In this document: piece by piece, positions 10,558 through 20,711 of the stretch
Layout of the letters: every line of letters begins with the position of its first letter
Numbering within the stretch: the first letter of the stretch is position 1
Made by a program: the position numbers and the translations under genes
Notes under the pieces: generated by a model
The model's input: the letters and a program-made list of their open reading frames with translations, nothing else
Told to the model about the DNA's origin: nothing
Databases searched by the model: none
Assembly: GCF_013167455.1 (NCBI RefSeq)
Contig: NZ_CP038328.1
Direction: 5' to 3' (one strand)
Length of the DNA stretch: 64,000 nt
From: Escherichia coli O157:H7
GTDB lineage: Bacteria; Pseudomonadota; Gammaproteobacteria; Enterobacterales; Enterobacteriaceae

Positions 10558-11712
10558 TTATGCCTGCCACGGATGAATGATTACGCCTTGCACCACGCGG
10601 TTAACGGTGCCACTGGCTGATGGGGTATCCGGCGTATTGCCCATGTGCAGCGACTGCATCAGTGCAAACGTCTGGGCGTACATCAGGAAGCAAAATGCCT
10701 GCTCAACGTCGATAAAGTGACGTGACGGTGGCAGGATGATATGTGGACCGGCAGCGACGATGTCGCTGCTTTCCGCGGCGATGGCGATTACACGCATTGC
10801 CTGGTTGTCACGGTGAAGTTCAGCCAGCAGATCAAGATCATACTGACGGGTGTAAGGGTGGCTGGAGACAAATACCACCACCAGTGTTTCGTTATCGACC
10901 AGCGATTTTGGTCCATGACGGAATCCGGTTGGAGAATCATAAAAGGCCGCCAGTTTACCCGCCGTCAGTTCCAGCACTTTCAGCGCCGACTCGCGTGCTG
11001 CGCCCTGTAAGCCACCGCTGCCGAGATAAACGATCCGTTTCCACGGTGCGTAACCAAACACACCTTCGCTGAAATCGCCCAGTGAGGTCAGGATCGCCTG
11101 GCAACGATCCGCCACGTCGCGGAAGGTTTGGCTGTTGATCGTCTCAGGTGCGAAAACCGCGAGGCAGCTGGCCATCATGGTGGTAATGCTGCTGGTCATC
11201 GCAAAGCCGCGATCGTGCGTTTCTGCGGGCATCAGCACGGCAAACGCGTTATCGCTGTTGATCGCGTTTTGGTAAAGAGCGCCCGCTTCGTTGCAGGTGA
11301 TCGGCAGGTGATAGCATTCCGGTACAAATTGATTTGCCAGTTCCACGGCTGCGACGCTTTCCGGGCTGTTGCCGGATCGACCGAAGGAGATCAACAGCAG
11401 CGGATGGGCTGGGTTCAGGTAGTCCATCGGATTAGTGACCAGATCGGTGGTCGGTACGGCGCTGAAGTTTTTACCGGTATGGCTGGCGAGCCACGGCGCG
11501 ATGATGTCACCGATAAATGCCGAGGTTCCGGCTCCGGTCAGGATGATCCGCAGATTCTCTTTGCGCAGTAACGGTTCAAGGAAGTTATTAAGCGCGGAAT
11601 GTAGCGCGTCGATGTTGGTGAGCGAACGGATCCATGCGCGAGGCTGATGGCGGATCTCTTCTTCAGTCCATGTACCGGTTGCGGCGGCAGCAGGGGTGTA
11701 ATTTTCTGGCAT
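10558..11712 (-). CDS. agaS: Sugar isomerase (SIS)-domain galactosamine-6-P deaminase/isomerase
   Basis: 384-aa ORF; tandem SIS-domain-like sequence; aga operon context. Confidence 0.9.
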   Translation of the reverse strand: MPENYTPAAAATGTWTEEEIRHQPRAWIRSLTNIDALHSALNNFLEPLLRKENLRIILTGAGTSAFIGDIIAPWLASHTGKNFSAVPTTDLVTNPMDYLNPAHPLLLISFGRSGNSPESVAAVELANQFVPECYHLPITCNEAGALYQNAINSDNAFAVLMPAETHDRGFAMTSSITTMMASCLAVFAPETINSQTFRDVADRCQAILTSLGDFSEGVFGYAPWKRIVYLGSGGLQGAARESALKVLELTAGKLAAFYDSPTGFRHGPKSLVDNETLVVVFVSSHPYTRQYDLDLLAELHRDNQAMRVIAIAAESSDIVAAGPHIILPPSRHFIDVEQAFCFLMYAQTFALMQSLHMGNTPDTPSASGTVNRVVQGVIIHPWQA

Positions 11713-17327: not shown

Positions 17328-18137
17328 ATGAGTAATACCGACGCTTCAGGTGAGAAGCGAGTGACAGGCACCAGCGAGCGACGAGAACAGATCATTCAGC
17401 GTCTGCGACAGCAAGGGAGTGTGCAGGTTAACGATCTGTCGGCATTGTATGGCGTATCTACCGTGACGATCCGCAACGATCTGGCGTTTCTGGAAAAGCA
17501 GGGGATCGCTGTGCGTGCCTATGGTGGCGCGTTGATCTGCGATAGCACAACGCCGTCAGTCGAGCCATCAGTGGAAGATAAAAGCGCGCTGAACACCGCA
17601 ATGAAACGCAGCGTTGCGAAAGCTGCCGTTGAGTTGATTCAGCCAGGTCATCGGGTGATCCTCGATTCCGGGACCACCACTTTTGAGATTGCTCGTCTGA
17701 TGCGCAAGCACACTGACGTAATTGCGATGACCAACGGTATGAACGTGGCTAATGCGTTGCTGGAAGCGGAAGGCGTTGAGCTGCTGATGACCGGCGGGCA
17801 TTTGCGCCGTCAGTCGCAATCTTTTTACGGCGATCAGGCTGAGCAATCGCTGCAAAATTACCACTTCGATATGCTGTTTCTTGGTGTAGATGCGATCGAT
17901 CTGGAGCGCGGCGTCAGCACGCATAATGAAGATGAAGCCCGTTTAAACCGCCGGATGTGCGAAGTTGCGGAACGGATCATCGTGGTCACCGATTCCAGTA
18001 AATTCAATCGTTCCAGTTTACATAAGATCATTGATACTCAACGTATCGACATGATCATTGTTGATGAAGGCATTCCTGCGGATAGCCTGGAAGGGCTGCG
18101 AAAGGCTGGGGTTGAAGTGATTCTGGTCGGGGAGTGA
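17328..18137 (+). CDS. agaR: DeoR-family repressor of the aga operon
   Basis: 269-aa ORF with N-terminal HTH ([39 protein letters not shown]) and DeoR C-terminal domain. Confidence 0.9.
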
Positions 18138-18191
18138 GAAAGGGTGCCCGCTGGTCAACACGAATGCGTTCGGCGGGCATTGTGAACACCA

Positions 18192-18656
18192 TCAATGGGT
18201 TTCTTCTGTCTCTCGGGTGAGGGTTTCCCAGTCGGCAGGAGGATGTCCTCTTTTTAACATTTTGCTGAATACGGTATAGGCATCTGTTTTTTTACCGTAG
18301 GTGCGCAGCGTGTTTTCATCGTTCATCCATCCCAGAATGATGACTTTCTCTTTTTCACTGTAACGAAAGAAGAGACGATAGCGACCAGCACCAAATTTTA
18401 CCCGTGACCAGTCTTTATTTTTCCCAGAGCCTAACGACTTGCCATGACGGAATGCCGGTGATGATGGATTGACCGTGATATGCTCCTCAATCACTTTATG
18501 GACCACCGCCAATAACTTTGTGGCAGCTTTTCTCTGATAATTTTCAGGATCTTTTCCCTTTAATGTCTCGACTTCGGCAACTAAAGCGTCGTAGGTTTCC
18601 TGAAAACAGGGATGAGCATATAGCGCCCAACCATTAACCCTTTGTGGAAAATCCAT
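18192..18656 (-). CDS. yhaV: Toxin YhaV (ribonuclease) of the PrlF-YhaV toxin-antitoxin pair
   Basis: 154-aa ORF MDFPQRVNGWALYAHPCFQETYDALVAEVETLKGKDPE...; start overlaps the prlF stop (TAATG). Confidence 0.9.
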   Translation of the reverse strand: MDFPQRVNGWALYAHPCFQETYDALVAEVETLKGKDPENYQRKAATKLLAVVHKVIEEHITVNPSSPAFRHGKSLGSGKNKDWSRVKFGAGRYRLFFRYSEKEKVIILGWMNDENTLRTYGKKTDAYTVFSKMLKRGHPPADWETLTRETEETH

Positions 18657-18991
18657 TATTCGTCGTCGCCAATCTCATCATCAATGTTGACGTCCATGCC
18701 AGCGACAAGTTTCTTTCCTTGTTGAATGTTGAATGGACGAGTTTTTTGCGGGTTGTTCTGGATATCTGTATCCAGAAAACGCAAAAATGCATTCATAGTA
18801 TGATCCTCCTGCTCATCTCCCAGTCGGCACATAAATACTTGCCCACCAGGCAGAATTTCGTAATGAATGCTGTCCTGGCCTGGCTTCAGTTTTAAGGCCT
18901 CACGCACTGGCGCGGGGATAGTTGTTTGTCCGCGTATCGTGACCTTTGATTCAGTGGTCAGTACAGCGTGAGAGCGAGCATTAGCGGGCAT
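18656..18991 (-). CDS. prlF: Antitoxin PrlF (SohA), AbrB/SpoVT-fold
   Basis: 111-aa ORF MPANARSHAVLTTESKVTIRGQTTIPAPVREALKLKPG... with acidic C-terminus. Confidence 0.9.
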   Translation of the reverse strand: MPANARSHAVLTTESKVTIRGQTTIPAPVREALKLKPGQDSIHYEILPGGQVFMCRLGDEQEDHTMNAFLRFLDTDIQNNPQKTRPFNIQQGKKLVAGMDVNIDDEIGDDE

Positions 18992-19097
18992 GATTCACTG
19001 TCCTTTTACAGCCTGTTTTCTGCTCAAATTATAAGCTTGAACTAAGGTAATGCAAATGCATTATTAATGGACGTGGGGGCTTTAAACAATAAAAACA

Positions 19098-19125
19098 TGG
19101 CACTAAGGCCATGTTTTGCGAGGGA
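19098..19125 (-). terminator. Intrinsic terminator downstream of garD
   Basis: On the minus strand, hairpin aaacatggcc / ggccatgttt followed by a T-rich tract, about 15 nt after the garD stop. Confidence 0.5.
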
Positions 19126-19139
19126 CGTTCCAAAAGAAA

Positions 19140-20711
19140 TCAGGTCACCGGTGCTGGGTTAAACACCGCCAGCTGGTTATGCAGTCCCCATTGATCCGAG
19201 AAGGTTTTCTTCTTCCCGCTGGCGACGTCGAGAATAAAGTGGAACAACTTCCAGCCCACCTCTTCAATGGTTTCTTCGCCGGTGGCGATAGTGCCCGCGT
19301 TAATATCCATTAAATCAAACCAGCGGTTCGCCAGCTCGGTGCGGGTCGCCATTTTAATGACGGGTACCGCCATCAGGCCGTACGGCGTACCACGACCGGT
19401 CGTAAACACTTGCACGGTGATACCCGAAGCCACCTGTTGCGTGCCACAGACAAAATCGCTGGCTGGCGTCGCGGCGTAAATTAATCCGCGTTTAGTCGGG
19501 CGTTGACCGGGCGACAGCACTTCAACAATTGCACTTTTACCCGATTTAGCAATGGAGCCGAGCGCTTTCTCCACTACATTTGCCAGACCGCCTTTCTTGT
19601 TGCCCGGCGAAGGGTTGGCGCTGCGGTCGGTTTTTCCCATATTGAGATAGTTATCGTACCACTCCATCTCCTCCAGCAGCCGTTTGCCGACCTCTTCGTT
19701 CACTGCGCGTGGTGTCAGCAGATGGATCGCGTCACGCACTTCCGTGACTTCTGAGAACATCACCGTTGCGCCGCAGCGCACCAGTAGATCAGACGCATAC
19801 CCAACCGCCGGGTTTGCCGTTACGCCAGAAAAGGCATCGCTGCCACCGCACTGCATGCCGACAACCAGTTCTGAAGCCGGACAGGTTTCTCGCTGACGTT
19901 GATTCAGTTTTTGTAGATGGCGTTCGGCGACCTGCAAAATATCCTCGACCATGGACTGAAAACCGACATGCTTTTCATCCTGCAAACTGACAATGCTGGC
20001 GCTTTCTACTGGAATAGCTTGCACATCATCCGTTCCAGTCAGCAGGCGCTCAGGCTGCAACTTTTCACAACCCAGGCCAATCACCATTACTTCGCCGCCA
20101 AAGTTAGGATTCAGCGAAATATTGTGAATGGTACGGATAGGTACAACTGCCGCCGGTGCGTTAATCGCCACGCCACAACCGTACAAATGATTCAGCCCCA
20201 CCACGCCATCGACGTTCGGGTATTTCGGTAGCAGATCGCGTTCAATGATTTTTACTACGTAGTCCACCACGCCTGCCACACAGTGGACGCTGGTGGTGAT
20301 GCCGAGCAGGTTTTTGGTGCCCACGCTGCCATCGGCATTGCGATAGCCCTCAAAGGTGTATCCTTCCAGCGGCGGTAAGGGTTCCGGGACTTTGGTTGCC
20401 AGTGGCAGCGTGTGTAACGGCGGCGCTTTCGGCAGTACAACCATTGATTCGTCGATCCAGCTTCCGCGTGGGATTGCACGCACGGCGTAACCAATCACTT
20501 CGCCATAACGAATAATTTCACCATTAGCCGGAATGTCGAGCAATGCGACTTTATGCCCCTGGGGAATATGTTCAATTAATTCCAGCCCATCCGGAAAACG
20601 CGTTCCTGCTTTCAGGCCATTATCATTAACAATAATTGCCACATTATCTGTGTCGTGAACTTTTATATAAAACGCAGTTGGCGTTTCTTGTCTGATTTCG
20701 ATGTTGGCCAT
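19140..20711 (-). CDS. garD: Galactarate dehydratase
   Basis: 523-aa [42 protein letters not shown]... Confidence 0.9.

Follow-up and report, generated by a model that had tools for sequence, protein, structure and literature searches.

Genes of the locus

The window (the whole stretch of E. coli O157:H7 DNA that was analysed, 64 kb in length) contains two adjoining genes on the minus strand, prlF (18656..18991) and yhaV (18192..18656), which encode an antitoxin and probable autorepressor of 111 aa and a ribonuclease toxin of the RelE superfamily of 154 aa, respectively. The antitoxin gene lies directly 5' of the toxin gene, the arrangement that marks a type II module of the PrlF/YhaV kind, and overlaps it by one base. 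The prlF reading frame matched the profiles PF15937 (1.1e-41, 141 bits; cutoff 32) and the NCBIfam equivalog PRK09974 (1.9e-50, 169.6 bits; cutoff 125), and the yhaV reading frame matched PF11663 of the RelE/ParE superfamily (7.8e-54, 182 bits; cutoff 35). Residues R85, R92, R94, and R98 of YhaV, which were invariant in an alignment of 15 sequences, are all kept in the O157 protein. In addition, positions 18100–19200 of the window were 100% identical to E. coli O157:H7 genomes in which RefSeq names the two genes prlF and yhaV. By these profiles and this annotation of identical DNA, the gene names that had been given in a sequence-only reading of the window were right.

PrlF carries an AbrB/MazE-like DNA-binding domain at the N-terminus and is acidic at its C-terminal tail. 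The AbrB-type domain model TIGR01439 scored 27.1 bits over residues 15–38, slightly below its cutoff of 28.3, and the match to PF04014 was weak, with the MazE Pfam model reaching 19.5 bits against a cutoff of 24.7. A structure search with both proteins found no solved structure of PrlF or YhaV.

The pair had been placed between the aga and gar loci, and its neighbours bear this out. The agaR gene (17328..18137, plus strand) is convergent with yhaV, while garD (19140..20711, minus strand) ends 148 bp upstream of prlF. The intergenic distances at the locus, 148 bp and 54 bp, are the same as those published for K-12 (PMC5120126). No family was matched in an Rfam scan of the region 17800–19500, which implied that the intergenic regions conceal no known RNA element. 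Among the best 80 of 226 loci from species representatives, yhaV was immediately preceded by prlF in every case except one, a contig cut upstream. In K-12, as related by papers that cite Schmidt 2007, including PMC7781912, the toxin arrests growth and is neutralised through a complex with the antitoxin. We identify the locus as the O157:H7 allele of the E. coli prlF-yhaV operon, a chromosomal type II toxin-antitoxin system. Published work already covers this system, its palindromic operator and the unequal occurrence in lineages of E. coli, so that the biology is known; as a classic toxin-antitoxin locus of E. coli K-12, it would by itself restate textbook-level knowledge.

Relation to known toxin-antitoxin systems

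The closest relative is the PrlF-YhaV (SohA-YhaV) system of E. coli K-12 (Schmidt et al. 2007, J Mol Biol 372:894), which has the same genes, position and spacing. The DNA of the 1006-bp cassette described below is 99.1% identical between O157 and K-12 MG1655, with nine nucleotide differences in O157, and the promoter-operator core is identical. A few residues of O157 YhaV differ from the commonest allele, and these differences do not imply a difference in function. The system resembles MazE-MazF in the AbrB/MazE-type swapped-hairpin N-terminal domain of PrlF and in its reported autoregulation from a palindrome in its own promoter, but the partner toxin of PrlF is RelE-like rather than MazF-like. 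With the RelB-RelE and ParE modules it shares the order of antitoxin before toxin and a toxin classed as RelE/ParE, a ribosome-dependent enzyme that cleaves mRNA, whereas the fold of the antitoxin is different and the complex is described, in the part of PMC7781912 that deals with it, as PrlF2-YhaV4. A passage of another review groups prlF-yhaV with systems of the VapBC/FitAB type, in which the toxin makes the antitoxin bind more tightly to the operator (PMC8138530), although the PIN-domain fold of those toxins is unrelated to that of YhaV. Conditional cooperativity was not found for PrlF-YhaV in the literature surveyed.

Predicted promoter, probable operator and terminators

The best promoter-like site of the region, as judged by consensus match, was a predicted sigma-70 promoter of prlF-yhaV at 19028..19056 on the minus strand, with a -35 element TTTGCA (19056–19051), a 17-nt spacer and a -10 element TATAAT (19033–19028), which together agree with the consensus at 10 of 12 positions. 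The -35 element sits within a perfect 7-2-7 palindrome, TAATGCAAATGCATTA (TAATGCA-AA-TGCATTA), at 19048..19063. A protein bound there would therefore exclude RNA polymerase. The palindrome was the sole match to its sequence in the window, even when one mismatch was allowed, and it was matched in none of 100 shuffles. The sequence-only reading had recognised this palindrome upstream of prlF, but at 19049–19064 and 58–73 bp from the gene. Its coordinates were one base off, and, counted from the A of the prlF start codon, the near and far ends lie 57 nt and 72 nt upstream, respectively. Adding one base on each side gives the 18-mer GTAATGCAAATGCATTAT at 19047..19064, in which one outer position is imperfect; on conservation and literature, this 18-bp sequence, of the family form GTAA-N10-TTAC, is the candidate operator.

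Three further elements flank these sites. The Shine-Dalgarno sequence of prlF, AAGGA (19001..19005, minus strand), would form a duplex of -5.3 kcal/mol with the 3' end of 16S rRNA. A box for CpxR, GTAAAaggacaGTGAA, predicted in the literature, lies at 18994..19009 on the minus strand and overlaps the ribosome-binding region of prlF; it is given for prlF at position -3 with a score of 9.04 (PMC9600279, supplementary file 4), and the same paper states that prlF is repressed by CpxR. Upstream of the promoter, the terminator hairpin of garD (19092..19117, minus strand), which was detected by a terminator scan, has a 10-bp stem followed by a T run and a fold z-score of -2.2; it is kept in E. albertii, E69 (a divergent lineage of E. 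coli-like type) and the Pseudocitrobacter-like loci, and belongs to the dimorphic cassette. At the other end of the operon, a G+C-rich hairpin at 18145..18179 between the convergent genes yhaV and agaR folds at -20 and -24.5 kcal/mol on the two strands (z-scores -2.1 and -1.6) and is likely a bidirectional terminator.

Conservation of the promoter-operator region was tighter than that of its surroundings. The 45-bp core at 19026–19070 was identical in 4975 E. coli genomes, while the locus overall varies by up to about 3%. The block TAATAATGCATTTGCATTACC together with TATAAT was unchanged in E. albertii, E69 and the Pseudocitrobacter-like loci, although the remaining intergenic region of the Pseudocitrobacter-like locus had just 69% identity. 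P1-like plasmids of Salmonella Wandsworth and Citrobacter braakii, with PrlF proteins 57–60% identical to that of E. coli, carry the perfect palindrome GTAATGCATTTGCATTAC 78 nt upstream of prlF. The version in Cedecea is GTAATGCAATTGCATTAC, that in Cedecea davisae is ATGGTAATGCAATTGCATTACCAT, and most of the alphaproteobacterial loci have GTAAGGAAnnTTCCTTAC 30–50 nt upstream of prlF. When the family motif was scored as GTAA-N10-TTAC with inner symmetry, at most 120 bp upstream of prlF, a site was found in 49 of 82 family loci, against a background of 6 matches in the remaining 870 kb (0.0008 per 120 bp). The other 33 of the 82 loci fail this strict filter, and many of them have looser versions. 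Elsewhere in the window, the motif gave a single weak, random-looking match at 26936. An operator-like sequence within prlF (about 18781–18797) was judged to be a chance match because it is not conserved in the Pseudocitrobacter-like loci.

The core of the motif is TGCA in Enterobacterales and GGAA or GGAT in Alphaproteobacteria. Residues 14–35 of PrlF (window 18887–18952), in the DNA-binding N-terminal domain, differ consistently between two operator classes, being SKVT.R.QTTIPAPVREAL where the operator core is TGCA and STITAKGQTTVPK.VRQAL where it is GGAA. From this comparison, the residues, with PAPVRE against PKxVRQ as the main contrast, are candidate determinants of specificity, and the two kinds of core offer a natural pair for mapping the DNA specificity of swapped-hairpin antitoxins. 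An uncultured Enterobacteriaceae genome (locus L008, 5565–5600) has two overlapping tandem palindromes, TGCAATGCAAACGCATTGCAATGCATTTGCATTGCA, upstream of prlF, which would suit the reported binding by a dimer of hexamers.

The abstract of the 2007 study by Schmidt and co-workers reportedly describes binding to "a conserved sequence in the promoter region". A full-text literature search for the operator sequence itself returned unrelated matches only. The Reg-Seq preprint lists prlF and yhaV among its targets, and its text has no result for either. A section of PMC7781912 citing Schmidt 2007 describes binding of the PrlF2-YhaV4 complex to a palindrome in the promoter of prlF, and the toxin is called a co-repressor in a passage of PMC8138530. 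The suggestion of the sequence-only reading that the palindrome is a candidate autoregulatory operator fits both this published binding and the conservation across genera and across the family. Geometry and conservation strongly support the candidate operator, reviews report promoter-palindrome binding, and the bases bound by PrlF-YhaV are very likely those of this palindrome.

A different reading would make the palindrome a chance sequence, an element that helps to terminate garD or a site at which some other regulator binds, with the true operator elsewhere in the 148 bp. The same intergenic region does hold a second palindrome, the hairpin at 19092–19117, and the predicted CpxR box is closer to the prlF start codon. 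The garD terminator, however, forms a complete hairpin apart from the palindrome, with its own T run, while the 7-2-7 palindrome is AT-rich, has a spacer of only 2 nt and overlaps the -35 element. Moreover, the palindrome is kept where the bases around it diverge, an 18-bp motif built in the same way is found ahead of prlF in distant bacteria and on plasmids, and binding of the complex to a palindromic sequence of the promoter is stated in the review section cited above (PMC7781912). On this evidence, an operator at another place is very improbable.

Translation of yhaV and a model for the operon

The stop codon of prlF and the start codon of yhaV share one base in the sequence TAATG (18654..18658, minus strand). 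The end of prlF reads GAC GAA TAA, with the stop at 18658–18656 and the yhaV ATG at 18656–18654, and the minus strand there reads GAATAATGG. This overlap, which the sequence-only reading had claimed along with translational coupling, was read directly. Pairing of the 16S rRNA 3' end with the 22 nt that precede the yhaV ATG gave -2.7 kcal/mol, close to the random mean of -2.45 and compared with -5.3 for prlF. Thus, yhaV is without a Shine-Dalgarno sequence, in keeping with translational coupling. In 69 of 85 family loci, the yhaV start lay between -4 and +5 nt from the prlF stop, and this tight spacing, together with the missing Shine-Dalgarno sequence, makes the claimed coupling plausible. The exact -1 junction (TAATG or TGATG) occurred in 23 of the 85, with gaps of up to 23 nt in others, so coupling by overlap is not universal across the PrlF/YhaV family. 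In published RNA-seq, the two genes shared one transcript, the antitoxin/toxin mRNA ratio being 1.11, and calculations and ribosome profiling gave a higher synthesis of the antitoxin, according to the portion of PMC5535158 that treats this operon. Reinitiation at the overlap is most likely the way in which yhaV is translated, being the most economical reading.

These features can be joined in one model. A single sigma-70 promoter would drive a bicistronic prlF-yhaV mRNA. PrlF, as an AbrB/MazE-like swapped-hairpin dimer and together with YhaV in the reported PrlF2-YhaV4 hexamer, would bind the 18-bp palindrome at 19047–19064. Because the palindrome contains the -35 element, the bound complex would cover that element and block RNA polymerase, and the operon would repress itself. 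Ribosomes that end at the prlF stop would restart at the overlapping yhaV ATG, and such reinitiation would tie the synthesis of the toxin to that of the antitoxin and hold the toxin lower. The 1006-bp cassette would be an old resident between garD and agaR without mobility genes of its own, exchanged whole by homologous recombination in the flanking genes. In this complete form, from the prlF-yhaV operon with self-repression via the palindrome and coupled yhaV translation to the old cassette exchanged as a unit, we hold the explanation with high confidence.

Two alleles between agaR and garD

The sequence-only reading had proposed a comparison of the agaR-garD interval across Escherichia and Shigella for presence or absence of the pair. 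Our comparison showed that the interval is dimorphic, not invariant. The full locus was present in 5134 of 5426 complete E. coli genomes, while 188 of the 5426 (about 3.5%), mostly with B2-type flanks, had an identical 70-bp sequence between agaR and garD instead. The dimorphic cassette spans 18134..19139 (1006 bp) and includes the final codon and the stop of agaR, the G+C-rich hairpin, both genes of the pair with their promoter and operator, and the terminator of garD. Its junctions were exact, at 18133|18134 on the left, within the end of agaR, and at 19139|19140 on the right, where garD has its stop codon. The cassette was exactly 1006 bp long in O157, K-12, M1/5 and E69, and the alternative was 70 bp long in eight empty-allele strains. 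Since the left junction is inside the end of agaR, two C-termini of AgaR are linked to the two alleles; the protein ends in ILVGE (269 aa) with the cassette and in ILVGDHASSL (274 aa) without it (window 18123–18137 compared with 1520–1553 of the empty locus L001).

The 70-bp allele has its own strong hairpin (z-score -4.5). Its alignment to the cassette, a weak match to the yhaV-agaR spacer, was equalled in score by 47 of 1000 shuffles; the hairpins of both sequences start with ATGCCCG and end with CGGGCA. The flanks were of B2 type in seven of the eight empty-allele strains examined, with 2–20 differences per 1400 bp from the cassette-bearing B2 strain M1/5. IHE3034, which has the 70-bp allele, first departs from M1/5 at distances of 56 bp and 103 bp from the junctions. 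The flanks of the eighth strain, Z1323CEC0015, are not of B2 type, and non-B2 bases come within 35 bp and 46 bp of its junctions. The presence of the same 70 bp on B2-type and non-B2 flanks indicated that this allele has moved between backgrounds on very short recombination tracts. The zero diversity of the 70-bp allele was dropped as a sign of youth, since it is not significant for so short a stretch. In the part of PMC10790755 concerned with YhaV, the toxin is described as common in every sequence type studied apart from ST95 and ST12 (phylogroup B2), and this published absence agrees with the occurrence of the 70-bp allele mostly on B2-type flanks.

A decayed copy of the region was observed on an island of E. 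coli Nissle 1917 (NZ_CP058217.1; L003, about 8060–10613), where kbaZ, agaR and garD are all pseudogenes and are about 91% identical to the native genes. This copy is free of the toxin-antitoxin pair, its AgaR tail reads GELASSL, and it has the same hairpin as the 70-bp allele with 11 extra bp. It is a fossil of a diverged lineage without the pair. The island also carries an enterotoxin gene and YfjI-family and inovirus-Gp2-like genes, and an island-type copy apparently occurs in about 450 genomes (636 minus 188).

Age, exchange and mobility of the cassette

The order garD-prlF-yhaV-agaR-kbaZ was also found in a Pseudocitrobacter-like metagenomic contig, in which the cassette was 74% identical and the flanks were 69–83% identical. 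This synteny, with a cassette identity in the range of the flanks, indicated that the module is an old resident of the site. Within E. coli, the cassette diverged by 2.6% and the flanks by 2.8% between M1/5 and K-12, and by 0.9% and 1.7%, respectively, between O157 and K-12.

The comparison with E. albertii gave another pattern. In the one genome compared, that of the type strain NBRC 107761, the cassette had 22 differences in 1006 positions from O157 and 13 in 1006 from M1/5, while garD and agaR together had 272 differences in 2378 from O157 (Fisher p = 3.5e-22 for the contrast with the cassette). The cassette with about 100 bp of garD was 97.8% identical to O157 and 98.7% identical to the B2 strain M1/5, in contrast to 88.5% for the flanks. 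Thus, the cassettes of the two species have diverged by 1.3–2.6% and the flanks by 11.4–11.6%, the cassette being about five times less diverged. The mismatches fell from 10–14 to about 2 per 100 bp between about 19246 and 18134 of the window. The low divergence of this tract relative to its flanks implied that it was exchanged between E. coli and E. albertii long after their split, and the mismatch profile points to a recent exchange limited to the cassette and about 100 bp of garD.

How the two alleles arose and how the cassette came to its site can each be read in more than one way. That strains without the module simply deleted it might be suggested by the concentration of the absence in B2-type flanks and by its published occurrence in ST95 and ST12 (PMC10790755). 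Against this, the 70 bp could not be convincingly aligned to the cassette, which points to replacement rather than deletion, and they bring five extra agaR codons and a different terminator hairpin. In addition, the identical 70 bp lie on flanks of both types, and the pseudogene block of the Nissle 1917 island, which is 9% diverged, has the same architecture free of the pair. We consider deletion highly improbable; by these alignments, the 70-bp state is an allele replacement. A recent mobile insertion of the module, as a genomic islet, at the garD-agaR junction would account for the G+C content of the cassette, which is lower (44–47%) than that of the flanks (53–56%), for the patchy occurrence of the family (5 Enterobacterales loci among the best 80 of the 226 found in 100,044 species representatives), for the relatives on 328 plasmids, 175 of them conjugative and P1-like phage-plasmids among them, and for the empty sites in E. 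coli. Nevertheless, E. albertii and the divergent E69 lineage have the same site and junctions, the Pseudocitrobacter-like contigs have garD-prlF-yhaV-agaR with the cassette within the range of flank identity, and the cassette diverges like its flanks between B2 and K-12. No transposase or integrase reading frame was found in or beside the cassette, no insertion sequence was seen, and at 18134 and 19139 there were only short chance matches and no significant direct or inverted repeats. With neither these enzymes nor terminal repeats nor a target-site duplication, the cassette does not have the marks of an autonomous mobile element, and a recent insertion is unlikely.

It is possible, and we put this forward tentatively, that the cassette, which lacks mobility genes, is a selfish allele at a fixed site. 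Homologous recombination in the conserved garD and agaR ends would carry it from one Escherichia lineage or species to another, and it would compete with a 70-bp allele, free of the toxin-antitoxin pair, that itself travels in very small recombination patches. If so, addiction would bias which allele is retained.

Two repeats were observed near the cassette. An 11-nt direct repeat (18197–18207 and 19203–19213, 10 of 11 positions matching) is spaced by exactly 1006 bp; as it lies 63 bp from both junctions, it was rejected as a trace of transposition and is probably a coincidence. In the Pseudocitrobacter-like loci (L005, 5542–5559 and 6482–6499; L088, 5542–5559 and 6481–6498), the 18-bp hairpin repeat of the garD terminator, CATGGCCTTAGGGCCATG, brackets the module, and E. 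coli keeps only the copy on the garD side. The repeat in these loci could be a trace of the first entry of the cassette into the site.

Distribution of the family and significance of the locus

Relatives of YhaV were present at 226 loci among 100,044 species representatives. The best 80 of the 226 comprised 75 alphaproteobacterial or other non-enteric loci and 5 of Enterobacterales, and the representatives of E. fergusonii, E. marmotae, E. ruysiae, Salmonella and Citrobacter had none among these 80. YhaV homologues were found in only one phage record.

The additions of this analysis to what is known are modest. They consist of the exact boundaries of the cassette, the linked difference in the C-terminus of AgaR and a family-wide operator design with lineage-specific cores. 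The locus also provides a clean example of exchange between E. coli and E. albertii that is limited to a cassette, and its classification is unchanged. It may be of use for the question of whether chromosomal toxin-antitoxin modules persist through their usefulness or through the difficulty of losing them.

In P1-like phage-plasmids, which carry simA, icd, Rha, KilAC/ANT and ParB genes, the prlF-yhaV pair was observed right after the antirepressor gene, at 3576–4450 in the Salmonella Wandsworth plasmid p21-SA00706-0 (L084) and at 5588–6462 in a 90-kb contig of C. braakii (L086). These homologues have the same two-gene layout as the chromosomal pair, the same abutment of stop and start codons and the perfect operator, but YhaV is 65–66% and PrlF 57–60% identical, and the pair adjoins the ant/KilAC genes of a mobile replicon rather than sugar-acid operons.
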